A stretch of 64,000 nt of DNA from a virus. The translations under genes were made by a program, and so were the position numbers. The notes beneath the pieces are model-generated. The model was not told the DNA's origin. It worked only from the letters and a program-made list of their open reading frames with translations, and made no database searches. Position 1 is the stretch's first letter. The number at the start of each line of letters is the position of its first letter. Of this stretch, positions 5,841 through 38,349 are shown piece after piece. The stretch lies in the UHGV virus genome UHGV-0225074. The stretch is one strand, 5' to 3'.

Positions 5841-5848
5841 TTTTCACC

Positions 5849-7450: not shown

Positions 7451-7452
7451 TT

Positions 7453-7602
7453 TTAACCCTCCATTACAACTGGTAAGACAGACCTGATCCCATCTCTCCA
7501 TGCCAACCAACACATTAACTGGAGGATTTCACGCTCCTCTGCATCTGGATAAAGATGTACTGGTGCGTTTTTATCAAACCAGTCCATAAATTCTTTAGAC
7601 AT
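7453..7602 (-). CDS. hypothetical small protein
   Basis: Start refined to ATG at 7602 (SD GAGGAG; the ORF track extends further to 7638). Confidence 0.35.
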   Translation of the reverse strand: MSKEFMDWFDKNAPVHLYPDAEEREILQLMCWLAWRDGIRSVLPVVMEG

Positions 7603-8515: not shown

Positions 8516-9589
8516 TTATTCTCCTTTTATATTCAGCAATTTACGGACAGCTTCTTCGGCTTTCTGAGTACGTTCTTTGTAATCACTGCCGGAGATAACC
8601 ACCACCTTGCTTGTATCGTAAGATGCTCTGATCATTGTGTCAAGCAAAGAATGTGTTTCTTTACGTTTTTCTGGTGTATCCTGCAAGCGAAGAGGATCAG
8701 CAACCCACGGGACCTCTGGTGTGAGGAACAGGAATAGGTCGTAGAAGTTGTAGCTCTCTTCACGGCTCAGTGTGCGGAACAGAAGATCGGAGTAGTCGAT
8801 CTTGTCTGCACAAATACCAGAGAAGTGGGTGATCAGGTTTGTGGTGTCAGAGAACATAACCCCACAACCACCACAGCCAGCCAATTCCATCTCCTTCAGG
8901 CGATGCTCCATTGCGATACGCAGGTAGTCTCCACGAGACATTGCTAACTCACTGGAATGGTATTCACGCTCACAGATAAGCCGTCCGACCTCAGGAATCC
9001 AACCAGCACCGAAGGTATGCGCCAGATGCCGTGTCAGTGTGGTCTTGCCCGTACTCTCAACCCCAATGATGGCAACCTTCTTCATGAAGCGCTTACGTGC
9101 AGGCCACGCTAGGTTGTAGAAGTTGTTGTACGGATCATTACGGATCATCGTGGCTGAGATAGGAACAGCTTTACGTTCTGCGTCGATAACTACATGCTTC
9201 GCTTCAGGGAAGAACTCACTGAAGTAAGACTCATACTCCGGCTCAGAAGAGAAAGCAAAATCGTACTTAACGAACGGTTGCTTTTCACGGATCAGTTTTG
9301 CATAGGCAGCACTGCCTTCAGGGTATCCTGGGATATTCGACTCATCAACGTAGTCAACCTTCACGTTGTCCAAGCCCTCATCGGCAATAACATCCAGCAG
9401 GTCACGATAGCGATCAGCAAGACCCAACTTTGGACGAATCCATTCTGGTTGTGCGTCAACGAATTTCTGGTCATAGGACAGGAACAGATACAGAGCACTA
9501 ACCTGTTGCGCCGCCTGACGAATAAAGGCAATATGCCCGTTGGTCAGGGGTGCAAACTTACCGAAGATAAGGCCGCGAGTCATTGTCAT
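8516..9589 (-). CDS. nadR: NadR-like bifunctional NMN adenylyltransferase / ribosylnicotinamide kinase (no HTH domain)
   Basis: SD GGAG before ATG; N-terminal nucleotidyltransferase motifs GKFAPLTNGH (HxGH) and ISATMIRND (ISSTxxR); C-terminal Walker A IIGVESTGKTTL as in the NadR RNK domain. Confidence 0.8.
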   Translation of the reverse strand: MTMTRGLIFGKFAPLTNGHIAFIRQAAQQVSALYLFLSYDQKFVDAQPEWIRPKLGLADRYRDLLDVIADEGLDNVKVDYVDESNIPGYPEGSAAYAKLIREKQPFVKYDFAFSSEPEYESYFSEFFPEAKHVVIDAERKAVPISATMIRNDPYNNFYNLAWPARKRFMKKVAIIGVESTGKTTLTRHLAHTFGAGWIPEVGRLICEREYHSSELAMSRGDYLRIAMEHRLKEMELAGCGGCGVMFSDTTNLITHFSGICADKIDYSDLLFRTLSREESYNFYDLFLFLTPEVPWVADPLRLQDTPEKRKETHSLLDTMIRASYDTSKVVVISGSDYKERTQKAEEAVRKLLNIKGE

Positions 9590-14339: not shown

Positions 14340-17054
14340 TCAATGACATTGTGCCCAATTAGCGCCAGTCAGGTATGCTCCTGTAATATGCACGGGGCTT
14401 CCCATAATACGAGCTGCCTTCTCTACACATCTTACGACCATTTCACCTACAGGGCAATACTGGATGTGAATTTTACCATCCTCTCCAAAAATACCCTCGT
14501 AGACTGTATTGCCTTCCGCATCCTTGACTTTATCACCATTTTCATCTTTGACGGCCTTTCTCCACTCATGCCCGTCAAATACGCGGCCTTTTGCTTCCCA
14601 TTCTTTTACGAAAGCTGTTGCCTCTTCCAGGGTATCAAACTCCCACTTCTTCAAGTATTTCTTAGGAACCTGGAGCTGGTATTCATCATGGTAGTAAATC
14701 AGGCGACGAACGTCATCATCATACCAGCCACGTTTGATCAGTTCCCAATGAAGAAGGATACCCACCAGATCGAATAGAGATGCACCACCGTTTTGCTGGA
14801 AAGCATTCAGAAGAGAGTGCTTAGAACGGGTCCAAATCTTACGACCATCGAGACCAGGGATATAACGTTTACCCGTTGCTTCCCAGAAGTTTTCAAGCCA
14901 TTCCTTACGACCTTTCAAACCAAAGTTACTATCCCAGAAAGCATCGATTACCGCCTGTGCCTTGTCAAGGGAAATGTGAAGCATTGCTGCAATCTTAGCT
15001 GCCTGAGCACCATACATGATGCCGTAGGTTACCCCTTTACCACCGTTACGCGTTACCAGAGTACCAGAAGCTTTGGTGTATGCCTCGGCGTTTCGTGCGT
15101 GGGCATCTCCACTTTCCATGATACGGAGGTATTCACCACCATCGAACTGATATGCACCCCATGCCGCGATCATACCTTCAAGGTTAGAACCATCGATACC
15201 GACCTGGTAATATTCATCGGTAACACCCCAGAGGCCACGCATCTCTTTACCCAATAACACCTTAGGGTCTGGTTTAGGCATGTTTGCACAAATGGTGTGC
15301 TTACAACGCCCGGTGTTAGTGATACCAGAGAAACGAGCTGGAAGTTTTCCATCAATCGCCAGGCGAGGATGATTCAACAGCCCTGTATCGTTTTTATCCT
15401 CGTCAATAGGGTCGAGAACAGAACGACGGTTACGTAATGACAGCCACTTAACAATCTGTTTAGCCAAGTGAACATCGATAACTTCAAGGTTAGGACACAG
15501 CTTGCCAAAGTTATCCTTCAACTGTGGTGAAGTCGGCAGTTGACGAGCTTTGCGTCTGAACTTCTTGAAGATCTCCTCGTAAACACGATCAGAACCATGA
15601 CGATGGTCGAACTTGTTTTCCGAGATATTGAACTTTGCGTCACTATTATTTAAGTACTCAAGAATCAGAGATTTATACTCGGACTCTCCAAGTTCTTCGA
15701 TGTACTTACGCACCAGACCATCAATCTCCGCATCATCGCGGGTCTTTTTGAACTGGTCTTTCGTCACATCTTTAACACGCCAGAGCGTTGGTTTCCATCC
15801 CGCATCGCGGATCAGATACTTCTTGATGTCGTCCTGGTTCGAGATCTTCATCGGAACCATCAGGTCTGGCATCTTTCCAGCACGAAGATCGGCAATTGCC
15901 TTTTCCATTAGGTCTGGTGGCAATGGGACAAGGGTATTCTCTTTCTTTATCTGGCTTCTAATGAAGTCTGGCATCGCTGCCGGGTCTTCAACACCATTCT
16001 GGATACAGTATCTTTCCCCTGCTGCACTTACATCACCGTTACCTTTAAACGCCGTCTTCGGTGGACCTTTGAATTCCAGCGCTTCACGATTAACTGGATA
16101 TCCCAGCTTGTATTCTAACCAATTCCACCCGTGATGGGAAATTCTTCCTGCACCATCAAAAGGATTAGCAGGGAATTTTGGCTGTTGAGACTTCGTCATC
16201 TCTTTGAGCGGGAGTTGAGGTTCTACTTCTTCCTCAATCTCTTTCATCATTACATCAATACGGTCTCTCAGCTTTTCAGCTTCATGCTTATTGAATGGAA
16301 CACCCTGAATTTCTTGCTCAATCATCAGGTAATCAGTCAACATACGGCGGCGTAGCGCGTTCTTCCAGTTGATCTGCCGCATCCCTTCCGGTTTATCTTT
16401 GTACATGAACTGCTTGTCATCAGGCCAGCGAGCACCTGTAGATTCATCGATCAGGGATTGCCATACTAACTCGTTGATTAAAACGTCTTCCCAGACACGA
16501 TTAACGTATTCCCACAAGGGTTGGTTACGCCAGTCATCGATCTGAACTTTCTTGTTTGCTACGCGGTAGCCCCAGGTCAACAGGCCATGAGGACCTACAC
16601 GGTCTCGCTTCCCAGTTACCGGGTTAAGAACAGAGTCAGGGCAACCGTTAGGTAATGGACGGTCAGGATAAAGCACACGGCTCATAGAGAGGGTGTCGTA
16701 GAGATTTACCTGTGTATCCCCAATCGTCCCCATGCACTTCGGGTCTTTGAACATATCATATTCAATGCCCGATAACTTCTTCCACAGACGCAGGTCATAG
16801 CCAAACAGGTTGTGACACGCAATGGCCCTACACGTCTTCAGGAAGCTTTCCAGCTCGTCGTATGAACGAATTGTAAGGTTAACATCCTTCTTGTTCCTGG
16901 CAAAGGCTACAGCGCTTTCATATTCTGGGTGTGCGGGGTCTAAAAACAGATTCCAGTTGTTGACTCCAAATTCTTTCAGCAAAGTACAATGGTACTTCGT
17001 TACTTCGTCTAACAGGCCATCGGCCTCGTTATCCAGTATAAACAGACCTTTAAT
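14340..17054 (-). CDS. DNA polymerase, family A (T7 gp5-like)
   Basis: N-terminus DNEADGLLDEVTKYHC aligns with T7 gp5 DIEANALLESVTKFHC; motif-B-like KGVTYGIMYGAQAAKIA; C-terminal ...GANWAQCH resembles T7 ...GPNWAICH. Upstream end extended past the track TTG (16982) to an in-frame ATT at 17054 that lies 4 nt after a perfect AGGAGG. Confidence 0.85.
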   Translation of the reverse strand: MKGLFILDNEADGLLDEVTKYHCTLLKEFGVNNWNLFLDPAHPEYESAVAFARNKKDVNLTIRSYDELESFLKTCRAIACHNLFGYDLRLWKKLSGIEYDMFKDPKCMGTIGDTQVNLYDTLSMSRVLYPDRPLPNGCPDSVLNPVTGKRDRVGPHGLLTWGYRVANKKVQIDDWRNQPLWEYVNRVWEDVLINELVWQSLIDESTGARWPDDKQFMYKDKPEGMRQINWKNALRRRMLTDYLMIEQEIQGVPFNKHEAEKLRDRIDVMMKEIEEEVEPQLPLKEMTKSQQPKFPANPFDGAGRISHHGWNWLEYKLGYPVNREALEFKGPPKTAFKGNGDVSAAGERYCIQNGVEDPAAMPDFIRSQIKKENTLVPLPPDLMEKAIADLRAGKMPDLMVPMKISNQDDIKKYLIRDAGWKPTLWRVKDVTKDQFKKTRDDAEIDGLVRKYIEELGESEYKSLILEYLNNSDAKFNISENKFDHRHGSDRVYEEIFKKFRRKARQLPTSPQLKDNFGKLCPNLEVIDVHLAKQIVKWLSLRNRRSVLDPIDEDKNDTGLLNHPRLAIDGKLPARFSGITNTGRCKHTICANMPKPDPKVLLGKEMRGLWGVTDEYYQVGIDGSNLEGMIAAWGAYQFDGGEYLRIMESGDAHARNAEAYTKASGTLVTRNGGKGVTYGIMYGAQAAKIAAMLHISLDKAQAVIDAFWDSNFGLKGRKEWLENFWEATGKRYIPGLDGRKIWTRSKHSLLNAFQQNGGASLFDLVGILLHWELIKRGWYDDDVRRLIYYHDEYQLQVPKKYLKKWEFDTLEEATAFVKEWEAKGRVFDGHEWRKAVKDENGDKVKDAEGNTVYEGIFGEDGKIHIQYCPVGEMVVRCVEKAARIMGSPVHITGAYLTGANWAQCH

Positions 17055-22017: not shown

Positions 22018-23325
22018 CTAAAATTTTCCTGGGAATGTGTCTTTGTAGAATTTAACAATTCTTTGGTCTACGATAATATCACGTTCTTTAACCGGACGCA
22101 ATAATCTTAAACCTTTTGTAGAAGTGGCCCTGCTAAAGGCAACATAGGCCATCCCAGGAGCAAAAGCTCCATAACCAAAGTCTATATTAACCTCTGGCAA
22201 AGTCAAGCCTTGAGCTTTGTGAATGGTCACTGCATAACCAAGGCGAATGGGTAAGTTTGTGTATGTTCCAACAACAATCTTTTCCAATTCCTCTTCAGTC
22301 TTACCATTCTTGATAACCTTTCTTGGGAAGTATTCAACATTTTCCCAGACATTCTTTTCGATCTCTACAACCTTGCCATCTTCCAGTTCTACATCTACCG
22401 AAAACTTCCTTAGGGCCTTGATAATACCCCGTGTTCCGTTTACAAATTTAGGACCGTCTTCATCTGGATTCTGATCATTAACGGTGATCATGACACGAGT
22501 CCCTACCTTGAGGTGTAGACTCTCAGCAACTGGACGCTGGGCAAAATCTCCTGTTTTGGAGGCTTTGTAAATAACCTCTTCACCAAGTATCTGATCGTAA
22601 TGCTTTTTGTTGATACGCTCCGCTGCGGCATTAGTTGAAGTTAGGGTAATCGCATTCAGTGCTGCACCTTTTGAATAGCACTGATTGTTGAGGAATTTAA
22701 CTATTTCATCAATACGCTCGCCTTTCCTCATATGATTCAACAACGATGAAAAATGCACACTGTTTTGACGATAAATCTTGTCAAGAAGTACAGGGTATGG
22801 ATTTATCTCTCCCCAAGTGTCTGAGAAACACGATAATTCTGTGCTGTGGAGTTCGAAGTAAGCGTTTTCTTCAGAATCTGTCAGAACTGGAGGGTTCTGA
22901 AAGAAATCACCAAACATTATGACCTGAAGACCGCCGAAAGCTTTCTTAGGCTCCCTTCTCGCAACACGTAGTTTCTGATCCATTTCCCACAATTTGTCGG
23001 CTCGCACCATAGATATTTCATCAATAATGATACGCTCAAGAGATTTGCTTTTTAAAAGTTTTTTAGGTTTAGTTTTTACTGTCTTACCATCATCTTCTGT
23101 GGCTATCCCCATTGATAACCCGAAAGCTCGATGAGTTGTCATTCCATCAACATTAAGTGAAGCGACCCCTGTCGGGGCCACTGTTAATGTTGAACTTGGA
23201 TACAGGGATTGGATTGTTTTGATCAGATGGCTCTTGCCACTACCACCAGGTCCCGTAATGAAAACGTTTTTGCCTTCAATGATAGCACCTAAGGCCTCTT
23301 CCGTTCCCACTCCAAAATCAGACAT
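22018..23325 (-). CDS. dda: Dda/RecD/Pif1-like SF1B DNA helicase
   Basis: SD AAGGAGG; Walker A ITGPGGSGKSHLIKT; DExx-like IIDEISMV; C-terminal VTIHKAQGLT (motif VI). Confidence 0.85.
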   Translation of the reverse strand: MSDFGVGTEEALGAIIEGKNVFITGPGGSGKSHLIKTIQSLYPSSTLTVAPTGVASLNVDGMTTHRAFGLSMGIATEDDGKTVKTKPKKLLKSKSLERIIIDEISMVRADKLWEMDQKLRVARREPKKAFGGLQVIMFGDFFQNPPVLTDSEENAYFELHSTELSCFSDTWGEINPYPVLLDKIYRQNSVHFSSLLNHMRKGERIDEIVKFLNNQCYSKGAALNAITLTSTNAAAERINKKHYDQILGEEVIYKASKTGDFAQRPVAESLHLKVGTRVMITVNDQNPDEDGPKFVNGTRGIIKALRKFSVDVELEDGKVVEIEKNVWENVEYFPRKVIKNGKTEEELEKIVVGTYTNLPIRLGYAVTIHKAQGLTLPEVNIDFGYGAFAPGMAYVAFSRATSTKGLRLLRPVKERDIIVDQRIVKFYKDTFPGKF

Positions 23326-24560
23326 TAATCCTCCTTATCGAGATAAATTTCGTCCAGGATAGCACCCCTTACACCCACAACAATAACATCAGGAGCACCT
23401 GCTGGCTTTTCTTTTCCTGTCAATACCTCATAGCGGCAGCAGCGGCATTTCTTGTTATTGTAGTTATATGGTACGCTAACAATGTCTGCCGGGTCAACAG
23501 ATACCTCAACCACATTACCATAATCACGGGCATATTCCTTGGAGGCGATATGTAAACCCTGGCTACAAGCTTTGGTTGGGTCATCTTCAACCATGTTTCT
23601 TGGCATAGTGACTGTGGTGTTAGCCCAGTTAGGGACCAAGCCTGTGAACCAGTCACGAGGACCATTCTCAGTGCGTTTAAGACCCTTGTAGGCCAAGATG
23701 TTGCCATTCTCCAGAATCTCGAACTTGTTATGCTCCAGGAAGTCGTACAGCATTTCAACCGATTTGTAAGAAGGATTGAGCATCAGCTTCCGCATGAACT
23801 CGACATAACGGTTATCGAACTTCCCGGTCTCGATATCGGAAACAATACGGCGAGCAATACCGCTTTCTTGTTTGATACCGTGCCAGTACAGAATACCGTC
23901 CAGCAGCTTCATATCCGGTCCAAGATCGATTGCCACTTCAGCTTTTGCAGCGATTCCCGCCTCAATAAGCGCTACGGCTTCGTCGATCTTGTTGTTTAAC
24001 AGTAACATACCAACGTCGTTAAAGATTTCGCTGTTACTGCCCAGAGTATGAATGGTCCCATCGGGAAGTGTGATGGAAACGTTGCCCGGTGTCATGATGA
24101 CAATGGGATCAGCTTTCGTGTCATCAACAACCGAAATCTTAATAGGCACAGGTGTAGGTTCTGGAAGCTGAGGAACAGTAACGCTCACTTCTACATCAGA
24201 AACTACGAACACCACTTCCCAGCGCTTACCACGCTTGCCAAGGTCCTTGACAACTCCCTCCTCTTTGTCATGTCCTGCTGTTGTCTTTGCATGATCGATA
24301 ATCTTCGCATTCTGTACAGTCTTAGAGAATGCTCGGGCCTCTCCCCGACTCGCAAAGAACATAGAGGCAGTTGGCGCAGGGTAAGTTTCCATATCGAAGG
24401 AAATCGTCTTTTCCGGGGAAGCACCAATACTGTCTTTGGGGACAACCATCCAACGCCCCTCTGCCAGCACCGCCGGGGATACACCCCGGTCCACAACTTT
24501 CATACCACGACTTGCAGCACAAACACGAGCATCTGCACGGGATTTAAAAAGATTACTCAT
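23325..24560 (-). CDS. rIIB: rIIB-like protein (by synteny with the rIIA-like gene)
   Basis: SD AAGGAG; ATGA overlap with the upstream GHKL ATPase gene; assignment is positional only. Confidence 0.45.
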   Translation of the reverse strand: MSNLFKSRADARVCAASRGMKVVDRGVSPAVLAEGRWMVVPKDSIGASPEKTISFDMETYPAPTASMFFASRGEARAFSKTVQNAKIIDHAKTTAGHDKEEGVVKDLGKRGKRWEVVFVVSDVEVSVTVPQLPEPTPVPIKISVVDDTKADPIVIMTPGNVSITLPDGTIHTLGSNSEIFNDVGMLLLNNKIDEAVALIEAGIAAKAEVAIDLGPDMKLLDGILYWHGIKQESGIARRIVSDIETGKFDNRYVEFMRKLMLNPSYKSVEMLYDFLEHNKFEILENGNILAYKGLKRTENGPRDWFTGLVPNWANTTVTMPRNMVEDDPTKACSQGLHIASKEYARDYGNVVEVSVDPADIVSVPYNYNNKKCRCCRYEVLTGKEKPAGAPDVIVVGVRGAILDEIYLDKED

Positions 24561-26548
24561 TTATTTTCTCCTTTGCTATCAATAAATTTACGGTACTCAA
24601 CCACCTCTGGTGAGTTAAAATGTTGCATCGGGACGTGTTTCAGCAACGGGTAACGTTCTTTTACCTTGTTAATCAGACTTTTACCAACACGAATACGTCC
24701 ATTGACGATTCTCTTCGCAGTTCTTTCTGCACTATAATAACCTTTAATATGGTAAAGGGTACTAGCCATATTAACCTTTTCCTTGTATTCAGGATCTTTG
24801 ATAACCTCTACACCTATCCCCTTTAAGTCGTCCAAGAGAGAGCGATACTCACGCTGTCTGGTTAACTGATTAAGATGATAATCCAACAGGTTTGAACTTG
24901 CAACCTTATAAAGGTCGTCCTGTGTAATCATCCTAACATCATCATCCAGCCAACTCACTCGGTTTAAAGGTACGATATACAATTTATCATCAATACCAAG
25001 ATCTGACAAGAAGGTCTCCGGTTGATGACGGTTAGAAAGGTACGCCGTAGACCCAAGGTCACAAGTCCCTCGTGCCTGACCACCAGAATAGATCATGGCA
25101 TATTTGATATCATCAAATTCCGCACGGGAGATACGTGTTTTCCTAATAGCCCCACTCTGCTCAATGATCCATACGGGGTGCCCTGGTTCATACAGGCTAT
25201 AGCCGCCGTACTTTTTATCCGATTTCGATGCTGGACGCTTTTCAAGATCAGACAACTTGTGGATCATACCGGAAAAGAATGGGTTTTCACACATTTCCAA
25301 CACTTTTGCATTATCTGTCAGATAAACCGCTTTCCCAGATACGTCAAACAACTGATTACATTTGCTTCTAACCAGCTTATTGTCGTCGTTGTATACAAGA
25401 TGGTAACCATTCATCATATCCGCATATGAATAGTCTTTGTCAGTTTTACGCTTCTCCCCGTGGCCGTTGTAAGTTACACATTCCTTCACGCTTACAGAGT
25501 CAACATAATCTCTGAACGATTCTGCAATGTATTTTGCGCCGTATTTTGTAGCAAACCACCCGCCAACTCGCTTCATATACTCCAGAACATCCGCAAGTTT
25601 TGGAAGCTTACGGAGTTCATGATAGATTTCTTCACCACGACGATCAAGGGCAGTCTGGACAAATGCCTTAAGACGCTCTTCGAATCCACGGTCATTCTTA
25701 CCCTCGATAGTCCATTCACGTCCTGGGTTTACGTCACAATCCCCGATCGGAATGGACACCATCATCAGAGGCCATTCAGGGTTATTGCTCAGAAACTTTG
25801 ACTTGTACGGCTGTTGTCCCATAACCACAACGCTATCAGCATTGTTAGATACCGCCGAGTACATTTCCAGCATCCAACCAGATTCTTCATCTTTGAACGT
25901 ATACTGCACCGGGTAGGTACGGTCTCGAATAGATGAAGTCACAAATGGGTCATTGATCTCGTAAGGGAACTTAGCATAACGCAGGCAACTGATAATTGCA
26001 CGGCGGTATTTCTCAGTCTCTGCCGGGTCAACGTTGAATTTGATTTCAACACCATTTTCTTCTATGGTTTTTGACTCGTGGAGAGGCACAACCTCAGGTA
26101 TCCCTTGGTCTTTATGAACAGAGTACACAGTTTTAGTACCATCTTTGATAGAGATGACACTGAACATGTCCGTAACGGTGAACGGGGCCTTGGAACCAAT
26201 ACCTTTCGCACCGATCAGATCGTTGGATTCACGTTTAGTGGACGATCCCAGCATCATGAAGGTCTGGGTAACCATGTCAAAGTCCATCCCAATACCACCA
26301 TCCTTGACAGAATACCACGGTTCCAGGTCCGTTGGGGAGTGGATGATAATCGGTTTGTCCCGGCATCCGGCTTCTGTGTGTGCATCTACCGCATTGAACA
26401 GGGGTTCACGACAGGCAGCAAGGATCTTGTCCTCATAAATACCATCGATCAAGATACTGAAAGTTTCAGCATTAATCGCGATACCAGCCTGATAGCGTTT
26501 GACGTTGGTACTAACTTCTACCTTCTTCTCATTACGCTCGATTATCAT
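24557..26548 (-). CDS. rIIA: rIIA-like GHKL-family ATPase
   Basis: SD AGGAG; Bergerat-fold boxes: N-box FNAVDAHTEAG, G1 VKDGGIGMD, G2 GAKGIGSKAPF; no TOPRIM, so not a GyrB-type topoisomerase. Confidence 0.55.
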   Translation of the reverse strand: MIIERNEKKVEVSTNVKRYQAGIAINAETFSILIDGIYEDKILAACREPLFNAVDAHTEAGCRDKPIIIHSPTDLEPWYSVKDGGIGMDFDMVTQTFMMLGSSTKRESNDLIGAKGIGSKAPFTVTDMFSVISIKDGTKTVYSVHKDQGIPEVVPLHESKTIEENGVEIKFNVDPAETEKYRRAIISCLRYAKFPYEINDPFVTSSIRDRTYPVQYTFKDEESGWMLEMYSAVSNNADSVVVMGQQPYKSKFLSNNPEWPLMMVSIPIGDCDVNPGREWTIEGKNDRGFEERLKAFVQTALDRRGEEIYHELRKLPKLADVLEYMKRVGGWFATKYGAKYIAESFRDYVDSVSVKECVTYNGHGEKRKTDKDYSYADMMNGYHLVYNDDNKLVRSKCNQLFDVSGKAVYLTDNAKVLEMCENPFFSGMIHKLSDLEKRPASKSDKKYGGYSLYEPGHPVWIIEQSGAIRKTRISRAEFDDIKYAMIYSGGQARGTCDLGSTAYLSNRHQPETFLSDLGIDDKLYIVPLNRVSWLDDDVRMITQDDLYKVASSNLLDYHLNQLTRQREYRSLLDDLKGIGVEVIKDPEYKEKVNMASTLYHIKGYYSAERTAKRIVNGRIRVGKSLINKVKERYPLLKHVPMQHFNSPEVVEYRKFIDSKGENK

Positions 26549-27895: not shown

Positions 27896-28058
27896 TCTTA
27901 ATGACCCTCGCTTTTTGGACATGATAGACAAACTGTTTGTTCTCTTTAACAAACTTTTTGCCCTGTTCTTCGTCTTCGAAAATCAAGGTATCACACTCGG
28001 TGAAAGAATGTCCAGGTCTTTTTTCAACAGACCGCGTTGTGGCTACAATGAGGGCCAT
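27870..28058 (-). CDS. hypothetical small protein
   Basis: SD GAGGAGG; starts at the RNA-ligase stop. Confidence 0.45.
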   Translation of the reverse strand: MALIVATTRSVEKRPGHSFTECDTLIFEDEEQGKKFVKENKQFVYHVQKARVIKNGETRTEV

Positions 28059-29044
28059 TAGCCCTCCTCACTCAGACGAGTCATGTACCATGCACGAGCT
28101 TTGTTGCTGATAAACTTGCCAACATCTTTCATGGTCATGGAGCTGGCTTCCAGAACATCACCCTCTTCCTTGTTGATGTCTCGGTTAATCCACCCAATGA
28201 ATTCACCGATCTTAGTCTGGTCAAGACCGACTTCGCTGACACCCTGCTCAAGACGTGCTTCCGTCACAGCGTACTCAACGAACTCACGCATACTTGCGAG
28301 GCGTTCTGGGTCGATTGCCGCCAGGGTCTTAACTTTGGATACAGAGTGTTTATCACCCTTGACTTTAAACCACAGGCCAGAGATTTTAGAAAGCTCAGGA
28401 TCTTTTGGAGACCAGACAATGCCTTCACCGATACCTTCTACGCCAAAGAACTTACCTGCCGGGCATTTGTTTTCCACTTCACGAGTCAGTTCTGCCAGGT
28501 CATTCTGGACAAGCTCTGGCTCATTGAATGGAATATTAGCCATCCAGTAACCAAAGTCAAGGATACTGTAGATACGAGCATCCGGCAATCCAATTCCAAA
28601 CTGGAATGTTGGTGGTAGCCAGTTGAGGGTATCCGTTGCCTCATCCCGCCCCACAGCCACACGGAAGATAGCAAAGAACGGCTCCACTTCAGTGATGGCA
28701 ACACCTTTCTGAATGCCACGCCCAGCCCATTCACCAGCAATTTCAACCGGGAACTGGAACTCAACGTCATTGACTTCACACAGATATTTAACCTGAGAAA
28801 GAAGCTCTGCGGTGTCTTTTCGAGACATGAAGGCCGCGAAGCCATTGTTATCGTCGCCTACAGTCACGACACGCTCTTTGGACTGGAAGACAACTTCATC
28901 CTCAGAGTGGAATACCACACTGCCATTAGTGCCGTGAAGCTTAACCGTACCGATGTACGGGATCAGGTACGCTTCCGGTGGCAACACCTTCCGCTTGATA
29001 TTGCCCTCTTCATCAATACCGTCGAACGTCAGTTTATCATGCAT
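28058..29044 (-). CDS. RNA ligase, Rnl2-like (T4 RnlB family)
   Basis: Nucleotidyltransferase motif I VKLHGTN (T4 Rnl2 KIHGTN); with start at ATG 29044 the lysine is residue 35 as in T4 Rnl2 (the ORF track TTG at 29149 gives a longer product); no obvious SD. Confidence 0.65.
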   Translation of the reverse strand: MHDKLTFDGIDEEGNIKRKVLPPEAYLIPYIGTVKLHGTNGSVVFHSEDEVVFQSKERVVTVGDDNNGFAAFMSRKDTAELLSQVKYLCEVNDVEFQFPVEIAGEWAGRGIQKGVAITEVEPFFAIFRVAVGRDEATDTLNWLPPTFQFGIGLPDARIYSILDFGYWMANIPFNEPELVQNDLAELTREVENKCPAGKFFGVEGIGEGIVWSPKDPELSKISGLWFKVKGDKHSVSKVKTLAAIDPERLASMREFVEYAVTEARLEQGVSEVGLDQTKIGEFIGWINRDINKEEGDVLEASSMTMKDVGKFISNKARAWYMTRLSEEG

Positions 29045-29084
29045 GGTGCGGATAACCTGACGGAACTGTGCGGTGCTTGGGTAT

Positions 29085-29342
29085 TTAATTGGTTTTGTCA
29101 ATTTTATTCTCCTCAAATAATTTGCTAATGTGTCCGCCAGAAAGTTCAAGAACTACATATCTTTGTTGGTCATCAAAATACTGCTTCCCACTCCATGTTG
29201 CGTGGACAAGATTCCACGCATTCTTGGCAGCGCCAGAGCTAATCCATCCAATCTTGGCTTTGTGGTTCCAGAGGCATCTGTCAACAGTGTCATAGATGAC
29301 AAAAACCGATTTACTCATCAGGACCCTCCAGCTTCCAGCCAC
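29085..29342 (-). CDS. hypothetical protein
   Basis: 85-aa ORF between the macro and ligase genes. Confidence 0.45.
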   Translation of the reverse strand: MAGSWRVLMSKSVFVIYDTVDRCLWNHKAKIGWISSGAAKNAWNLVHATWSGKQYFDDQQRYVVLELSGGHISKLFEENKIDKTN

Positions 29343-29546
29343 GACTATTCAGCCATTCGTCAATCTGAATACCCGTGCCGTCACCACTTGGTTTCTCTAC
29401 CCCAAGTAGTAGTATGGCAAAGCTCTGACCACGAGGGGCGTTATAGGTTAACACCGTATTACCCACATAAAGGTCGATCTTTTTGGTATGTGCTACCATA
29501 CCGTCTCTCAATTTAACCACGATAATCCAGTCCCCCCTGTGGATAA
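29311..29546 (-). CDS. hypothetical small protein
   Basis: Internal ATG at 29546 with weak SD; overlaps the macro gene 3' end in another frame. Confidence 0.3.
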
Positions 29547-30119
29547 TCCACATTTTGTCATTTCCCGAATGGCAGCGATCTGTTCTGATGTCAGAGCGCC
29601 GTCGTCTGGAGGGTAGTAACCAGGGATTTCCCATTCTTTCAAGACATAAACTGTCACATCACAATCAAAGAAGATTGATTTGATCATTGCCTCGATGACG
29701 TTCCAGTCACCGCCTGCAAGGCCAGCACCGATTTTAGGGAACCCGATTCGATAGGTGTCCATAGGGCCGTCTGTATAGCTCTGTAAGAGCTTTTTCATCT
29801 CAACCATCGAATCGTACAGGGCATTGTAATCAAGGTCCCTGAGGCCCTGTTTACGGCGATTATAGCCGTATTGCGAATACAGATTAAATCCTGCGAGAGA
29901 TCCATCATTCAAAAAGGCCATTGTACAGGTTCCCAGCTTGGTCTTATCGCCCTTCTCAGTTTTCAGATCGGCAGCGTACATCTTAGGGAATGCTTCTTTG
30001 ATCAACGGGGCGATTCCGCTCCCCATTGTGCAAAAACAGTTACAGCCATGTCCAAAGACATTAATCTCACCGCTTTTTGCAGCCTCGATCAGGTCACCAA
30101 CTTTGTATTTGAAGCTCAT
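29508..30119 (-). CDS. macro-domain (ADP-ribose binding/processing) protein
   Basis: SD GGAGGTG; N-terminal GHGCNCFCTMGSGIA resembles the macro-domain Gly-rich loop; ATGA coupling with upstream gene. Confidence 0.55.
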   Translation of the reverse strand: MSFKYKVGDLIEAAKSGEINVFGHGCNCFCTMGSGIAPLIKEAFPKMYAADLKTEKGDKTKLGTCTMAFLNDGSLAGFNLYSQYGYNRRKQGLRDLDYNALYDSMVEMKKLLQSYTDGPMDTYRIGFPKIGAGLAGGDWNVIEAMIKSIFFDCDVTVYVLKEWEIPGYYPPDDGALTSEQIAAIREMTKCGLSTGGTGLSWLN

Positions 30120-31857: not shown

Positions 31858-33054
31858 TTATTTTCCTTCGATAAGCTTAATATCTTCAGCGTAGTTGACT
31901 TGGAAGTCTGCCATAATTTTCATTATGATGGGCTTTGCCTTCAACAAACGTGCAGGAAGCTTGTCACGGTGGCTTGCAGTGGTCAACAGCGCCTTACCGA
32001 ATGCATTTTCCTTAATGAACGACAGGAAAATAGAGCTTACGAAGTCTCGGTTCTGGTCCATAAAGTGATCGTAAAGATACTGTAAGAAGTTACCAGAGAA
32101 TTCAATAATCTGATCATCGGTGTAGTTGGTATCTGCAATAGCCTTAAGCAACCAAATAGCACCTTCAGAACCCAAAATCCACAAGCTATCTGATGGAAGG
32201 TCTCCAGGGTCTTGGGCAGTACCGTTCATAACATCTTCGATCGGAACCATATTACGAAGTTTAGTGTGGTATGCCCACAATTCAGTCATCAGAGGTGTGC
32301 CGATAAAGCCCTGGAGAGCAACCTTAGCCAAGTTGGCAGATAGCAACTCTGCATCATAATCATATAATACATCACTGGCAAATACCCAAGTACGGGGTGT
32401 GGCGTAAGAAGGACACCCGATATCCAGCATTTCTTCATAGTTTTCAATGGCGCTGTTCTTGCGTGACAGGAAACCAATGATAGAGGGATGAACACCATTC
32501 TGCATGGCGAAGTCCTCAATAAACACCGTTGCGCTATACGCCAGTTCTACTAGCATCATGCGGTTAGCCAGCGGGGCTTCCAGCGGGGTTACCGCAGTAC
32601 CATCACCCGCACGGTTACCCGCAGAAACTAATACAGCCCCTTCCGGGAACTGGTAGGTCCCGATACGACGATCCAGCATGATTTGGAATGCAAGTTTCTG
32701 AAGGTAAGTTTCAGCGTGGAGAAGCTCATCAAGGAACACGATACCTTTCCAGTTAGGATCACGAGGCCAAAAATCCGGCAATGCGTACACTGTGCGAGTA
32801 ACACCATTGTCATCGGTGTAGGGAATCTGCACCCCGGTGAGGTCCGTGTTATCTTTATCCGCCAGGCGGAAGTCTACCAGGTTATCACCAGGCCCGAAAA
32901 GAGAGTCTGCTATTTGCTTCACGGCCTGACTTTTACCAATACCTGCCCCACCGAAGATCATCAGTGAACGTTTGCGACGCTGGCAAAATTGTACGAGTGG
33001 TGGAAGATCGCGTAAAGTGATCCAGTTGCCAGAAAAGATGTTACGACTTGACAT
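31858..33054 (-). CDS. AAA+ ATPase, CobS/MoxR-like
   Basis: SD AGGAGA; Walker A IFGGAGIGKSQAV; Walker B-like GIVFLDEL. Confidence 0.7.
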   Translation of the reverse strand: MSSRNIFSGNWITLRDLPPLVQFCQRRKRSLMIFGGAGIGKSQAVKQIADSLFGPGDNLVDFRLADKDNTDLTGVQIPYTDDNGVTRTVYALPDFWPRDPNWKGIVFLDELLHAETYLQKLAFQIMLDRRIGTYQFPEGAVLVSAGNRAGDGTAVTPLEAPLANRMMLVELAYSATVFIEDFAMQNGVHPSIIGFLSRKNSAIENYEEMLDIGCPSYATPRTWVFASDVLYDYDAELLSANLAKVALQGFIGTPLMTELWAYHTKLRNMVPIEDVMNGTAQDPGDLPSDSLWILGSEGAIWLLKAIADTNYTDDQIIEFSGNFLQYLYDHFMDQNRDFVSSIFLSFIKENAFGKALLTTASHRDKLPARLLKAKPIIMKIMADFQVNYAEDIKLIEGK

Positions 33055-33635: not shown

Positions 33636-34139
33636 TTAGACAGCATTTTTCACCTTCCTCAACTCGAATTCATCGCCATAGCCTATCATATGCCCCTTGG
33701 CTGTGATCACCTTTTCGCCAAACACACTGCCAGTGCATTTACCAATGAATACCTCTGGCATATCCTCTTCTTCCAAGAGGATATTCACATTGAAAATACC
33801 GTGATAATGAGTTGCCATACAATGCGGGGCATTTTTATTTTTATTATCATATTTCTTCCACACACCATGCCCAACATAGCGGTACATATTATACTTATAC
33901 CACGTGTACGAACCCCACAAATCATAGGCTATATGGTCAACCTTCACGTTTACCAGACGACCTGTTTCCTTCAATAGCTCTTTATGCTCAGATCTTAGTT
34001 TCTTTATGGTTTCTTTAGCTCTCTCATAATACTCCAGATAACGATCAGCTCGCCGCATCATAACATCGAGAATACGTTCCTGGGTAGCACCACTGCCTAC
34101 TAAAGAGTCGTACATATCCTTACTTGATTTGATAGTCAT
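33636..34139 (-). CDS. hypothetical protein
   Basis: 167-aa ORF. Confidence 0.5.
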   Translation of the reverse strand: MTIKSSKDMYDSLVGSGATQERILDVMMRRADRYLEYYERAKETIKKLRSEHKELLKETGRLVNVKVDHIAYDLWGSYTWYKYNMYRYVGHGVWKKYDNKNKNAPHCMATHYHGIFNVNILLEEEDMPEVFIGKCTGSVFGEKVITAKGHMIGYGDEFELRKVKNAV

Positions 34140-34152
34140 CAGTGGCTCGCCT

Positions 34153-34662
34153 CTATAGTTTAGATAAAACGTTGATTGCTTCGTGGTGTTCTTTCATCTT
34201 TGTCAGACGAAGGTACATGTCGTGATACTTACGAATACGGAGTAGGTCTTTATCACCAAGACCTTTCAAGCGGCGAACATCAGAGTTGTGACGCAGGTCT
34301 GCAAGTTTCACACGAATTGCATCGTAATTGCTTGCAATACCCTGAAAATACTCCTCCGGCGTCTGGTTTGGTGTCTTCGTCAGCAGAACCACTGCACAGA
34401 CAACACGGTTGGAGAATCCCATCATCACAAGGTCAGCCGCCATAACGTCAGTATCTTCGACAACATCATGCAATGCTGCGATCGCCATAAGTTGAAAATC
34501 ATCGGTCTTCAGGTAGTGCATTACCTTCAGCGGATGAAGGATGTACGGGTTACCACCCTTATCTTTCTGATTCAGGTGGCCTTCTGCTGCAATTTTAATT
34601 GCCAAAGCAAGTTCTTGTGCTGGACTTAAAGCTTGAATACAACTCTTGTCTGTTGATACCAT
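34153..34662 (-). CDS. HD-domain small alarmone hydrolase (SpoT/Mesh1-type (p)ppGpp hydrolase domain only)
   Basis: SD GAGGAAG; motif GGNPYILHPLKV...LMAIAALHDVVEDTDV matches the RelA/SpoT hydrolase H...HD...D signature; 169 aa with no synthetase domain. Confidence 0.7.
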   Translation of the reverse strand: MVSTDKSCIQALSPAQELALAIKIAAEGHLNQKDKGGNPYILHPLKVMHYLKTDDFQLMAIAALHDVVEDTDVMAADLVMMGFSNRVVCAVVLLTKTPNQTPEEYFQGIASNYDAIRVKLADLRHNSDVRRLKGLGDKDLLRIRKYHDMYLRLTKMKEHHEAINVLSKL

Positions 34663-35612
34663 TTGACAGCTTCCTCTAGGTTAAAGGGTTTTATGTTCAG
34701 TCTATCGAAAGATTTTACGTTGTCAAGCCAAAATTCATCTTCATACCCTGCGATCGACATCATCATCAGTTCTTCTTCTGTTGGGGAATCCCCCTCCATC
34801 ATACTCTGTAGCTTAGGGTCATATTCCAAGTGGAACATTGTTTCTTTCGGGGAGCAAACGAACATTGCCTTACGTGCCTTATTAGCGATCTTTCTGTTCA
34901 TGATGTTGATAACCGAATGATTTATTTGGCTACAAATACGATCTAATGCGGAAGGCTCAAGATAGTCAGAGTAAAGAACCAAATCACCACTGATCAGCCT
35001 TACATTTTTAAGGGTGAATCTCTCCGCCTTACGCGGGGTCATCCAAGATTGGATAGGGGCATTTTTTTGATAACCGGTGTATTCGACAACCAAACGAAGA
35101 GCAAGAGCATCCCTTGACATCCCCACCAAAAGCTGCTTTATACACTCAAGAAAATACTTAGTACGGTAGTTAAAATTGCAGAACCCACCAAGAAATGCTT
35201 CACCGCAACCGTGACCATAAATATCGATGGAGATTGTTTCTACAAAGCGATGTGTCCAAGGGTCGCCACCCGTAATATGTGATTGGTGGGCTATTTCCAT
35301 ACGTGAAACATTTAGCTTCTGACTCATATCAGAACCATACTCCCGGACATCACCGGAATGCCATTGCCAATAAAAAGGGCCACCATGCGCCGGGAGTTTA
35401 TGGATACATGACAAAAATATGTCCAATATGGGGTTCGAATCCTGTACCCCTTGAAGATAATCTCTAAAGCGGGTGATAGGATTGTCAACATATTTGTCCC
35501 TCTCAAAAGTTGAAAGAAATCTCTCTTGAGCAGCCACCTTCCCTTGTAACAACTTATCTATGAAATCTCGCTCCTCATTCCAAGCTTTTAAATTAATATC
35601 TACTTTGCTCAT
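34626..35612 (-). CDS. hypothetical protein
   Basis: Start refined to ATG 35612 (SD GAGGGTAAG; the ORF track extends further to 35675); 328 aa. Confidence 0.5.
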   Translation of the reverse strand: MSKVDINLKAWNEERDFIDKLLQGKVAAQERFLSTFERDKYVDNPITRFRDYLQGVQDSNPILDIFLSCIHKLPAHGGPFYWQWHSGDVREYGSDMSQKLNVSRMEIAHQSHITGGDPWTHRFVETISIDIYGHGCGEAFLGGFCNFNYRTKYFLECIKQLLVGMSRDALALRLVVEYTGYQKNAPIQSWMTPRKAERFTLKNVRLISGDLVLYSDYLEPSALDRICSQINHSVINIMNRKIANKARKAMFVCSPKETMFHLEYDPKLQSMMEGDSPTEEELMMMSIAGYEDEFWLDNVKSFDRLNIKPFNLEEAVKWYQQTRVVFKL

Positions 35613-35678
35613 AATCTCACTTACCCTCTTATACGAATAATGAACAAAGATACACCACCACTTTTTAGAAATCAAGGG

Positions 35679-35707
35679 TTGACAACCCTTTCCCGAATGG
35701 TGATAAT
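35679..35707 (+). promoter_or_regulatory. strong sigma70 promoter for the plus-strand block
   Basis: TTGACA, 17 nt, GATAAT, 39 nt upstream of ATG 35746; the -35 sits inside the palindrome AGGGTTGACAACCCT. Confidence 0.55.
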
Positions 35708-35745
35708 CATCTTACTAAGAACGGGTAAGACCCAAGGAGTTAGAA

Positions 35746-36612
35746 ATGTCGGTATTACAAGAGTTTACACCTGAAGAAGTTGAAAAGTTGAGGAATCGTT
35801 TGAAGCATAAGAGGTTGAATGCTCGAAAACGGGGCCTTGACTGTGATTTAACAATGCAAGATATGCGTATGCTCGGATTCAAGCTTCTGGGTCACGGCTC
35901 TTGTGATTACACGGGGCTACCTTTCAGTACCAACATCGCGAATGATGGTGAGGAAGCTAACCCAAGGTATCCGTCTATAGAGAGAATCGATGACTCGAAA
36001 GGGTATGTCCGGGGAAACGTCTGTGTTGTTATGGCTCGTGCAAACCAGCTTAAGGACCGTCTGGTTGACAAAACAACTTCGATCCTGATCCAAGATTTGC
36101 TTGACAGGGAAATAGTAAAGGCCATGATGTTGAACATGTCCAAAGACCACCTTGAAAAACTGAAAACCAAATATATCCCACAACAGGAGAACGAAATGAA
36201 TACTGAAGAGACAATGCAGGACGCTATGGATAATGCTGAAGAACATGTTCACAACCAAAAACCTGCGGCGGAAGAGACAAGTGCTCCGAAAGAGGCCCAG
36301 AAGTTGCCTGAGGACGTCTCTGTTGCATTGGCGTATGCCCGTTACTGCAACACCTTCCACGAGGCTGGAATGTCTGTATCGGTCACCTATTCGCAATTTA
36401 AGGCACGATACATTCGCAACACCTGTGCATTATCTAGTGAAAAATTAACTGAAGAACCGAAATCTATTCTGATTCTGGATCTGAACATTGGCTTTGCCAA
36501 AGATAATTTCATCATTGTCTCCAAGAAAATGGAAACTGCTATGACCCAACTGATGATCCAGACGGGCCTGAGCCTGCCAAAAGTTGCAGCAATGCTGAAC
36601 AAGGTGGTGTAA
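35746..36612 (+). CDS. hypothetical protein with degenerate HNH-like segment and acidic C-terminal half
   Basis: SD AAGGAG; segment RYPSIERIDDSKGYVRGNVCVVMARANQLK resembles an HNH core with the His replaced. Confidence 0.45.
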   Translation: MSVLQEFTPEEVEKLRNRLKHKRLNARKRGLDCDLTMQDMRMLGFKLLGHGSCDYTGLPFSTNIANDGEEANPRYPSIERIDDSKGYVRGNVCVVMARANQLKDRLVDKTTSILIQDLLDREIVKAMMLNMSKDHLEKLKTKYIPQQENEMNTEETMQDAMDNAEEHVHNQKPAAEETSAPKEAQKLPEDVSVALAYARYCNTFHEAGMSVSVTYSQFKARYIRNTCALSSEKLTEEPKSILILDLNIGFAKDNFIIVSKKMETAMTQLMIQTGLSLPKVAAMLNKVV

Positions 36613-36909: not shown

Positions 36910-36921
36910 TTGGAGATAAGA

Positions 36922-38349
36922 ATGTATACAGATGAAAAAGAAAGCATTATGGAACTGGCTGATGAAGCACTGAAGAAAGTTCAGTCTGCCCGCATCGCTT
37001 TACTTACTAATCGACCATTCTACGGGACGCTCTTAAGCGGTATGCCGCTGATAGTTGACTGTGCATGGCTTCCAACCGCAGCGACTGATCATCGCAACCT
37101 ATACTTTAACCCAGAGTTCATTATGGGTATGCCTGTTGATCGCAAGAAAAAAGTCTTTGCTCGTATTGACAAGCATCCGATGATGACACAACAGCAAAAA
37201 GATGAATATAAAGAATATGTTGATGTCTTCTATCGTCAAAAAACCATGAAGGAAATTGTATTTATTCTAATGCATGAGGTCCGCCATGTCACCAACGACC
37301 ACATGTCTCGTGGGAAAACATTTGACCGTAGACGTTTCAATATCGCAGCCGATCACTATATCAACACCGACCTGGTCAAGGAGTTGGGCCAGAAAGCCGA
37401 GAGTTTGAAATGGTTCACTCATCGGCAAGTCTTTGATAAGACAAAAGAATTTGGATTCCTTGCTTACTGCTATTGTGACTATCAGTACGAGGGAAAAACG
37501 GCTGAAGAGATTTATGCTCTGTTGCCGGATGAAGCTGGTGATGGTAAAGGTAAGCCGCTGGGGGCGCACATCGGGGATTATGATAAAGACCTAGATATTC
37601 TGGGGTATACAGACCCACACCCACAGAAGTCTCCTGATCAGGAAGATGAGGATATGTCTTGGTCTGAGGACATGATTGACGCCGCTATGAAAGCCGCTGG
37701 CGGTGAAGGACCGAAAGAAGCCAGAGAATTAATCGCACAAAAAGGTAAACCGAAGATTAATTACCTGCAAATAATTAAGCAACGAATGATTTCTCGTGTT
37801 AAATCTGATCGTACTTATCGGGTTTTAGGTCGTCGGTCCGGCGGGATGACAAAAGTTCTTCGTGATCACGGTGCTTTAACTAAGAAACAGTTCATGGTTA
37901 TGCCTGGCAGAAAAAGAACAGAGACTGTTGATATTGTAATCGGTTTTGACGTTTCAGGCTCTATCTCTCGTCAAACAATGACGCGTATCTTCAATGAGAT
38001 AATCGCTTTGAGCACCCTGTACCAATGTTTCCGTATTACATTGTTCTGTTGGTCAACCCAAGTTGGCAACGTCAACGTGTATACACAGGACAACATAAAG
38101 GAAATTCTGGATTATAGAGTTACATCGACTGGTGGAACGACTGCGGCATGTGCTTTTGAGTACATCGATGAGTTTATTCCTAAGGCAAAAGAGGTTATAA
38201 TCTTCACAGATGGTTACATAGAGGACCTGAGGCATCGTGGCTCAAGCTGGGGGCGTAAGTACAACACTCTCTGGGTTATCTGCGGTGGTCGTAAGGGTTG
38301 GTTAGCTCCATTCGGGAAGGCGGTAGATTTGGATGAGCACTTTAAATAA
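36922..38349 (+). CDS. CobT-like protein: N-terminal metallopeptidase-like domain (HExxH) + C-terminal VWA domain
   Basis: Start at ATG 36922 (SD GGAGA); ILMHEVRHV (HExxH); MIDAS-like DIVIGFDVSGSIS. Confidence 0.65.
   Translation: MYTDEKESIMELADEALKKVQSARIALLTNRPFYGTLLSGMPLIVDCAWLPTAATDHRNLYFNPEFIMGMPVDRKKKVFARIDKHPMMTQQQKDEYKEYVDVFYRQKTMKEIVFILMHEVRHVTNDHMSRGKTFDRRRFNIAADHYINTDLVKELGQKAESLKWFTHRQVFDKTKEFGFLAYCYCDYQYEGKTAEEIYALLPDEAGDGKGKPLGAHIGDYDKDLDILGYTDPHPQKSPDQEDEDMSWSEDMIDAAMKAAGGEGPKEARELIAQKGKPKINYLQIIKQRMISRVKSDRTYRVLGRRSGGMTKVLRDHGALTKKQFMVMPGRKRTETVDIVIGFDVSGSISRQTMTRIFNEIIALSTLYQCFRITLFCWSTQVGNVNVYTQDNIKEILDYRVTSTGGTTAACAFEYIDEFIPKAKEVIIFTDGYIEDLRHRGSSWGRKYNTLWVICGGRKGWLAPFGKAVDLDEHFK

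Follow-up and report, generated by a model that had tools for sequence, protein, structure and literature searches.

Why would a virulent phage carry a hydrolase of the RelA/SpoT kind, and on which nucleotide would such an enzyme act? The question is raised by one gene of the UHGV virus genome UHGV-0225074, of which a stretch of 64,000 nucleotides (hereafter the window) was analysed. An earlier note, made from the letters of the window, described the gene product as a SpoT-type small alarmone hydrolase (SAH) located in a replication block. It proposed that a phage copy could block the stringent response or neutralise toxic small alarmone synthetases (toxSAS). The analysis presented here points to a related but distinct enzyme. 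The best explanation, which we regard as likely, is a stand-alone, metal-dependent, Aph1-like 3'-pyrophosphohydrolase that accepts adenine and provides counter-defence against toxSAS from an early transcription unit.

The gene and its integrity

34153..34662, minus strand: SAH gene, an open reading frame (ORF) from ATG to stop, 169 aa; stand-alone small alarmone hydrolase, probably of the Aph1-like or 'PbcSpo' type
34670..34677, minus strand: Shine-Dalgarno-like AGAGGAAG, 7 nt 5' of the SAH ATG and within the 3' end of the upstream gene, as read from the sequence

The ORF was found at the place noted earlier, along with both of the motifs quoted from it, and it could be assigned to the minus strand, about which the note was silent. 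YILHPLKV begins at residue 40 and AALHDVVEDTDV at residue 62, while a third motif of RelA/SpoT-homologue (RSH) hydrolases, KLADLRHNSD, begins at residue 119. The G+C content of the gene (0.447) is that of the window (0.448). In a large protein database, 4221 homologues were found, the top match being at 1e-105, and PHROG 990, 'metal-dependent phosphohydrolase', matches the protein at 2.8e-66. The ratio of non-synonymous to synonymous substitution rates (dN/dS) is 0.059 against the orthologue of Klebsiella phage Seu621 and 0.062 against that of Salmonella phage PVP-SE1, the latter with a dS of 1.28, at which the synonymous sites are nearly saturated. The homologue count, the PHROG 990 match and a dN/dS of about 0.06 place the gene far beyond chance. 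Thus, as far as gene integrity and selection were computed here, the gene is clearly functional and under purifying selection.

The whole of the 169 residues was modelled as one helical hydrolase domain, with no synthetase or regulatory domain. It was also seen that, within the RelA/SpoT models, the family matches are confined to the N-terminal hydrolase portion, which bears out the earlier statement that a synthetase domain is lacking. A six-frame scan with a hidden Markov model (HMM) found this to be the single RSH-type hydrolase within the 64-kb window.

Family assignment and fold

An HMM search against the HD_4 family was proposed in the earlier note as a check, and its outcome was divided. 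Pfam HD_4 (PF13328) gave a score of 21.5 bits, which is below the cut-off of 27.2, and covered only the N-terminal half of the protein (model positions 1-68 of 156). On the other hand, Rel hydrolases in the PDB match at 1e-9, and NCBIfam spoT_relA matches locally with 52.7 bits (model positions 1-83 of 687). Homologues of the SAH at 60-69% identity do carry PF13328. Taken by itself, the HD_4 result would be equivocal; the low score is put down to how sensitive the model is and is no evidence against a place among the RSH hydrolases. Since HD_4 stayed below its threshold, reliance was placed on the PDB, PHROG and NCBIfam matches, on residue mapping and on the predicted fold.

Among solved structures, the closest relative by both sequence and fold is one enzyme. 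The top PDB match, over the full length and with an E-value of 7.4e-26, is 7SMG, entered as '(p)ppApp hydrolase', whereas the structures of Rel, SpoT, MESH1 and other SAHs match at 1.6e-9 or worse. 7SMG is Aph1 (adenosine 3'-pyrophosphohydrolase 1) of Bacteroides caccae, the enzyme on which a family of monofunctional (p)ppApp hydrolases was founded (Ahmad et al. 2023, PNAS 120:e2213771120, PMC10083569). The AlphaFold (AF2) model of the SAH has a pLDDT (predicted local distance difference test) of 94.1 and a pTM (predicted template modelling score) of 0.88. With Foldseek, it falls on all four chains of 7SMG with a target-normalised template modelling (TM) score of 0.90-0.92 and a root-mean-square deviation of 1.2-2.4 A, whereas MESH1, PaSAH, RelH and the Rel hydrolase domains reach a TM score of no more than 0.66. 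Eight main helices and one 4-residue turn make up the model, whose last element is one long helix; a separate helix 9 is missing. A compact eight-helix HD fold without alpha-0 and alpha-9 has been described for Aph1, which assembles as a tetramer, and the family was defined by its authors via the HD-free C-terminal 53 residues, Y90-E143 (PMC10083569). The corresponding HD-free segment of the SAH, taken alone, matches Aph1 with 47% identity over 34 residues (E 5e-8).

The two proteins are not the same in every respect. Their identity is 32-38%, the phage SAH has about 13 extra disordered residues at the N-terminus, and its C-terminal helix is about 13 residues longer. The Rel/SpoT domains, MESH1, P. 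aeruginosa PaSAH, C. glutamicum RelH and SSU5 PaSpo share with the phage SAH the HD superfamily, the metal and catalytic motifs and the chemistry of 3'-pyrophosphate removal. They differ from it, however, in being distant (E 1e-9 to 1e-3), in having an Arg at the position of D34 of the SAH, in carrying extra helices (alpha-0 and/or alpha-9) and in hydrolysing (p)ppGpp.

The phage SAH is a member of the RSH hydrolase superfamily with a single domain and the full catalytic set. Judging from the Aph1-like sequence, fold and signature computed here, it is also a probable member of the Aph1 family. The membership is graded as probable and not as certain because a glycine, G108, departs from the published logo of the family at the position of R96.

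Active site and base specificity

The metal and catalytic residues of the SAH are H43, H65-D66, E69-D70, D122 and N126. H43, H65-D66 and D122 align with both Aph1 and B. subtilis Rel, and the catalytic residues of Aph1 and the SAH are identical. In 36 homologues with 54-88% identity, they are invariant or nearly so. Conservation was further computed in the 150 nearest representatives of clusters made at 50% identity, to which the counts out of 150 given below refer. The six scored residues H43, H65, D66, D70, D122 and N126 occur together in 148/150. Taken singly, the metal residues H43, H65-D66 and D122 are present in 149-150/150, and E69-D70 and N126 in 149/150. The HD residues, whose loss on alignment was named earlier as grounds for dropping the assignment, are therefore conserved.

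According to Ahmad et al., the Aph signature consists of D24, R96, D116, R119, K133 and Y134 (PMC10083569). Five of these six are kept in the phage enzyme, D34 corresponding to D24, D128 to D116, R131 to R119, K145 to K133 and Y146 to Y134; D34 and R131 stand for the two residues of Aph1 that experiments have proven to determine specificity. All five are invariant in the 36 homologues. Among the representatives, D34 and R131 are found together in 141/150, D128 in 112/150, K145 in 113/150 and Y146 in 145/150, and all five together in 82/150. The sixth, R96, is the one replaced by G108, and an Arg is found at this position in only 56/150; the Aph1 authors placed R96 away from the active site (PMC10083569).

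Could the SAH instead be a SpoT-like (p)ppGpp hydrolase, which would collapse the stringent response of the host and keep transcription and translation going? It does belong to the RSH superfamily with a full catalytic set, and several orthologue records bear the name guanosine-3',5'-bis(diphosphate) 3'-pyrophosphohydrolase; such database names are automatic, though, and not experimental. The stringent response can restrict phages (bioRxiv 2026.01.27.700999), and ATfaRel, which has been placed in the PbcSpo subfamily too, reduced ppGpp in vivo. The residues speak a different language. In ppGpp hydrolases, guanine is recognised by R43/R44/S45 of TtRel and their neighbours, with an Arg at the position equivalent to D24 of Aph1 (PMC10083569), and B. 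subtilis Rel likewise has an Arg at the equivalent of D34. In the SAH, the residue equivalent to R43 of TtRel is an Asp, D34, so the guanine-recognition pattern of SpoT and Rel is absent. Moreover, R131 would fill the space that the R119A exchange must open in Aph1 for guanine; the double mutant D24R+R119A of Aph1 gains ppGpp hydrolysis (PMC10083569). The pair D34 and R131 is the rule in the nearest relatives, as counted above, and the match to ppGpp hydrolases is much weaker than that to Aph1 in sequence as well as in fold. All 12 of the Aph1-family members tested hydrolysed ppApp, while 10/12 had no ppGpp activity and only 2 had a modest one (PMC10083569). A (p)ppGpp hydrolase is, on balance, an unlikely description of this protein.

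The proposal that the phage blocks the stringent response is weakened accordingly, and the label 'SpoT-type' does not hold where specificity is concerned: no (p)ppGpp hydrolase comes nearly as close to the SAH as the (p)ppApp-specific Aph1 does, and the SAH has an Asp in place of the guanine-contacting Arg and keeps R131. Going by these residues, 'SpoT-type' is not the best label. The prediction is rather an adenosine 3'-pyrophosphohydrolase, with (pp)pApp as a substrate and, probably, the pyrophosphorylated ends of tRNA too.

An orthologue that neutralises toxSAS

A link to a biological role comes from Salmonella phage PVP-SE1. Its gp220 (ADP02616.1) is 88.2% identical to the SAH over all 169 residues, and gene 220 is syntenic with the SAH gene: in both phages, the upstream gene overlaps, the anti-sigma-factor gene is divergent and a MoxR ATPase is encoded downstream. 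The orthology was computed here, and the 146-kb PVP-SE1 genome holds no RSH-type hydrolase besides gp220 (six-frame HMM scan; E 3e-92, next match 0.004). A second hydrolase that might confuse the orthology was looked for with the same kind of scan in PVP-SE1 and in the window, and the idea was dropped, as none was found in either. The 20 substitutions between the two proteins spare every catalytic and signature residue, and 7 of them lie in the disordered N-terminal 13 residues. The two phages do differ, PVP-SE1 being of the genus Seunavirus and not Mydovirus, with another host and different flanking accessory genes.

Jimmy et al. (2020, PNAS 117:10500, PMC7229694) reported that the SAH of PVP-SE1, assigned to PbcSpo and described by them as a stand-alone SAH, neutralised all five of the toxSAS tested in E. 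coli, namely CapRel, PhRel, PhRel2, FaRel2 and FaRel. The 88% identity and the synteny suggest that the window SAH falls in the PbcSpo subfamily as well. Thus, the idea that the phage enzyme counters toxSAS is backed by published co-expression of a syntenic, 88%-identical orthologue, and the co-expression experiment proposed in the earlier note has in this sense been carried out already, with a positive result.

It is also known that SAHs can strip the 3'-pyrophosphate from the CCA ends of tRNA (bioRxiv 2021.04.30.441581; PMC11559606). MESH1 and ATfaRel restore the aminoacylation of 3'-pyrophosphorylated tRNA (bioRxiv 2021.04.30.441581), and the SAH of phage SSU5 (PaSpo) is stated to remove the tRNA 3'-pyrophosphate (PMC11559606). 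On the side of the host, phage defence is a function of CapRel systems; three fused CapRel systems have been tested for it in E. coli, one of which came from K. pneumoniae (PMC9712102).

Proposed mechanism

In the favoured explanation, the SAH would be made from the early leftward transcription unit in which its gene lies. H43, H65-D66 and D122 are expected to hold a divalent metal, and E69-D70 together with N126 would position the water and the ribose. The pocket, shaped by D34, D128, R131, K145 and Y146, would take adenine and not guanine. The 3'-diphosphate would then be removed from (pp)pApp, by which AMP, ADP or ATP is regenerated, and tRNA with a 3'-pyrophosphorylated terminal A76 would most likely be treated in the same way. 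As the enzyme would destroy the products of the toxSAS and need no contact with the toxin, its action may be termed 'type IV antitoxin-like', a form of counter-defence against abortive infection by systems such as CapRel, which are present in Klebsiella and related hosts. A benefit to the phage during a real infection would be expected to follow.

Several points weigh against this explanation. G108 stands where the signature has an Arg. The adenine specificity is predicted from residues, and a search of the literature returned no report of enzymology for a PVP-SE1-type enzyme or of a counter-defence benefit at the level of infection. The modest ppGpp activity of two tested Aph1 homologues, together with the lowering of ppGpp by ATfaRel, shows that relatives may act on guanine nucleotides. 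Direct hydrolysis of pyrophosphorylated tRNA is known for MESH1, ATfaRel and, as stated, SSU5 PaSpo, and not for a PVP-SE1-type enzyme. Lastly, it is the position of the gene that suggests its early expression.

Comparison with the pneumococcal Aph1 modules

A second group of relatives occurs in temperate phages of pneumococci. One of them is the hydrolase of an Apk2-IapK-Aph1 module of a pneumococcal temperate phage, whose gene comes after those for a MuF-domain protein and a small ORF; the SAH shares 50% identity with it over 127 residues (E 3e-39). The C-terminal domain of this MuF protein has homologues at 43-46% in Pasteurella and Mannheimia phages and fits the published Apk2 toxin family. 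The validated Aph1 immunity proteins are 43-57% identical to one another (PMC12226406), a range which includes the 50% found here. The Aph1 of S. pneumoniae prophages (Bartoli et al. 2023; Paulet et al. 2025) also has the same signature residues as the SAH. The settings are different, nevertheless: the pneumococcal gene belongs to a cassette for toxin and immunity that adjoins the genes of the portal and MuF proteins, whereas the phage SAH stands alone in an early accessory region.

These modules raise the question of whether the SAH protects the phage from a (p)ppApp-synthetase toxin of its own, as Aph1 does for the MuF-Apk2 of temperate phages. Aph1 and the 50%-identical pneumococcal homologue directly follow a MuF-toxin gene and a small immunity gene. 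In the window, on the contrary, the SAH gene is not beside a MuF-fused (p)ppApp synthetase (Apk2) or a gene of the Tis1/IapK type; its neighbours are unrelated proteins, the genome is that of a virulent myovirus and not a prophage, and the PVP-SE1 gene has been called stand-alone. A tblastn search with the pneumococcal Apk2 toxin domain found homologues in Streptococcus, Pasteurella, Mannheimia, Haemophilus, Aggregatibacter and Ralstonia phages and none in the Vequintavirinae of Klebsiella, Salmonella, Escherichia and Cronobacter, although a very divergent synthetase would escape tblastn; for the phage itself, 64 kb of a genome of about 145 kb are covered. An immunity role of this type is thus highly improbable.

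Genome context

At the DNA level, the region shares 88-93% identity with myoviruses of Klebsiella and Proteus that are about 145 kb in size, among them Seu621, KpS8, BIS47, KNP2 and Mydo (genus Mydovirus, Vequintavirinae), and by this DNA identity the window belongs to Mydovirus. The features around the SAH gene are as follows.

8516-9589, minus strand: nicotinamide-nucleotide adenylyltransferase (NMNAT)
14340-16982, minus strand: DNA polymerase
22018-23325, minus strand: Dda/PIF1-like helicase, followed leftward by a methyltransferase and a primase/helicase
23325-26548, minus strand: homologues of rIIA (663 aa) and rIIB (411 aa), with the replication genes on one side and the accessory region on the other
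28058-29149, minus strand: RNA ligase, followed leftward by a cell-wall hydrolase, rIIA and rIIB
29508-30119, minus strand: macro-domain protein ('phosphatase' PHROG 335)
31858-33054, minus strand: MoxR-like AAA+ ATPase, with more small ORFs next to it leftward
33636..34139, minus strand: 167-aa downstream gene, PHROG 13383, 13 nt after the SAH stop
34626..35612, minus strand: 328-aa upstream gene, PHROG 10920, ATG at 35612, first of the leftward unit, with a 37-nt overlap between its 3' end and the start of the SAH gene
35613..35745, no strand: divergent intergenic region, with the leftward unit on one side and the Srd-like anti-sigma/HNH gene, read rightward, on the other
35679-35707, plus strand: near-consensus sigma-70-like site TTGACA-17-GATAAT in the divergent intergenic region
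35746-36612, plus strand: 288-aa divergent protein with PHROG matches both to 'HNH endonuclease' (6e-93) and to Srd-like anti-sigma-factor / sigma-70-decoy families (1e-20 to 1e-16)
36910-38349, plus strand: DUF2201 metallopeptidase and VWA-domain protein

The SAH gene is the second of a leftward unit; the 328-aa gene and the SAH are followed in leftward order by the 167-aa gene, small ORFs and the gene of the MoxR-like ATPase. The equivalent intergenic region of PVP-SE1 carries an annotated promoter, and relatives annotate the 288-aa divergent protein as an anti-sigma factor. A further promoter-like sequence, TTGACA-16-TAGACT (34699-34726, minus strand), lies some 37 nt ahead of the SAH start, still inside the 3'-terminal part of the 328-aa gene, and could give transcription of the SAH only. 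In promoter and terminator scans of the region, the site counts were not above the shuffled expectation, and the sites are given as descriptive only.

The term 'replication block' used earlier for this locus was right only in a loose sense. The DNA polymerase, the primase/helicase and the Dda-like helicase are on the same strand, though 11-20 kb away, while the adjoining genes are accessory early genes with many small ORFs. The SAH is thus placed in an accessory, probably early, region of host takeover. Two other pairs of genes in the surroundings deserve mention. The rIIA and rIIB genes are the classic anti-abortive-infection genes of T4-like phages; the homologues here sit in an rV5-like genome. 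MoxR-VWA pairs usually act together, and the genes of the MoxR-like ATPase and the DUF2201-VWA protein were seen on opposite arms of the divergent early region, a pairing which is kept in PVP-SE1 (genes 225 and 216).

The neighbouring genes

The two neighbours of the SAH gene have the sizes and the layout given in the earlier note, and no function could be recognised for either. The 328-aa protein had no Pfam or NCBIfam match and no PDB match better than E 0.4; 15 homologues were gathered, and its AF2 model has a pLDDT of 46.6. It is 34% identical to PVP-SE1 gp219, as against 88% for the SAH in the same two phages, and so evolves far faster. RefSeq and PHROG 10920 name it 'thymidylate kinase'. 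This name was considered and set aside, since the protein has no Walker A motif in addition to lacking the database matches just mentioned; the label looks like an annotation error that has spread between records of an early gene in rapid evolution.

It had been suggested that these neighbours may be partners of the SAH. As obligate partners, they can be rejected. The SAH is found in 347 phage records, among them Vequintavirinae, T4-like Aeromonas phages, PAK_P1-like Pseudomonas phages, pneumococcal temperate phages and others, whereas the 328-aa gene is found in 62 and the 167-aa gene in 51 phage records, all of them Vequintavirinae. Cronobacter phage CR3 and T4-like Aeromonas phages have the SAH and lack these two genes. 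In CR3, where the SAH is 57% identical, it comes first after the divergent promoter, in the place held by the 328-aa gene in the window, and Aeromonas phage phiAS4 has neither neighbour. Moreover, the PVP-SE1 orthologue was active alone in E. coli. A lineage-specific link of the SAH to the overlapping upstream gene is left as a low-probability reading, for which the overlap, kept in Seu621, PVP-SE1 and Av-05, can be cited.

The SAH gene and the homologue of the 167-aa gene are set apart by other small genes in Seu621 and PVP-SE1. The stretch directly 3' of the SAH varies, with two extra small ORFs in Seu621 (7126-7744 of the Seu621 locus) and the different genes 221 and 222 in PVP-SE1 (5507-6448 of the PVP-SE1 locus). 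A hotspot of accessory-gene turnover adjoins the very stable SAH gene. Half-length matches to the SAH were also noticed, over residues 7-79 at 68% or 91-158 at 54% (OK136180, Escherichia phage 18-1-2; OP617741, Klebsiella phage KP13-16), which may come from truncated, split or mosaic genes.

RNA and NAD gene sets

The surroundings also bear on the substrate. The physiological target of the SAH might be another 3'-phosphorylated adenosine compound, such as NADPH, pAp or PAPS (3'-phosphoadenosine 5'-phosphosulfate), or an adenosine-based immune signal. MESH1 is an NADPH phosphatase as well and has been crystallised with NADPH and with PAPS. Genes related to NAD salvage and ADP-ribose are, moreover, numerous in the window and its relatives: the window codes for NMNAT and a macro domain, and NAMPT, phosphoribosyl pyrophosphate (PRPP) synthetase and Sir2-like genes are present in PVP-SE1. 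The SAH is, however, much less like MESH1 than Aph1, and the tested Aph1 members are efficient ppApp hydrolases. The orthologue, furthermore, rescues toxSAS toxicity, for which removal of the 3'-pyrophosphate is needed (PMC7229694). Another substrate of this kind is quite improbable, and an Aph1-like enzyme directed at 3'-pyrophosphates is preferred.

NAD+-salvage sets have been linked to the evasion of NAD-depleting defences. The NMNAT of the window and, in PVP-SE1 (genes 26, 32, 96, 97 and 109), NAMPT, PRPP synthetase, a transporter of nicotinamide mononucleotide and a Sir2-like protein make up a set of this kind.

A set of genes for RNA is seen in these phages too. PVP-SE1 (GU070616) is annotated with a CCA-adding enzyme, RNA ligases 1 and 2 (genes 106, 159 and 239) and more than 20 tRNA genes, and Seu621 with a putative polynucleotide kinase (14668-15015 of the Seu621 locus). 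In the window, the macro-domain protein and the RNA ligase (28058-30119) are near the SAH gene; with the genes of PVP-SE1 and Seu621, they make up a sizeable RNA/tRNA-repair toolkit. This toolkit, the SAH included, may serve in counter-defence.

A bolder extension may be offered tentatively, and we think it somewhat doubtful. The PbcSpo SAHs and the Aph1 hydrolases would form one clade, with an adenine pocket that fits both ppApp and tRNA ending in pyrophosphorylated A76. The SAH would then be a dedicated enzyme of tRNA 3'-end repair and counter-defence in virulent phages, working alongside the tRNA toolkit of the lineage, and the upstream gene, which overlaps the SAH gene and evolves fast, could be a host-specific partner in counter-defence that is selected together with it. 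In the literature searched, no report was found that links the Aph1 family to tRNA-targeting toxSAS.

Significance

The SAH is already known in kind, being the orthologue of a tested phage SAH and a probable member of the Aph1 family, and nothing about it is fundamentally new. The analysis offers a refinement: the enzyme of the Vequintavirinae is Aph1-like and probably adenosine-specific, where many records say 'metal-dependent phosphohydrolase' or 'ppGpp pyrophosphohydrolase'. If the adenosine specificity holds, it would explain how a single enzyme neutralises toxSAS that produce (pp)pApp as well as those that pyrophosphorylate tRNA, because both products are 3'-pyrophosphorylated adenosines. 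It would also unify two separate literatures, one on the PbcSpo SAHs and the other on the Aph1 hydrolases. It would then be predicted that the CapRel-type defences of Klebsiella, Salmonella and Enterobacter do not affect phages with such an enzyme, a point of relevance to the choice of therapeutic phages.

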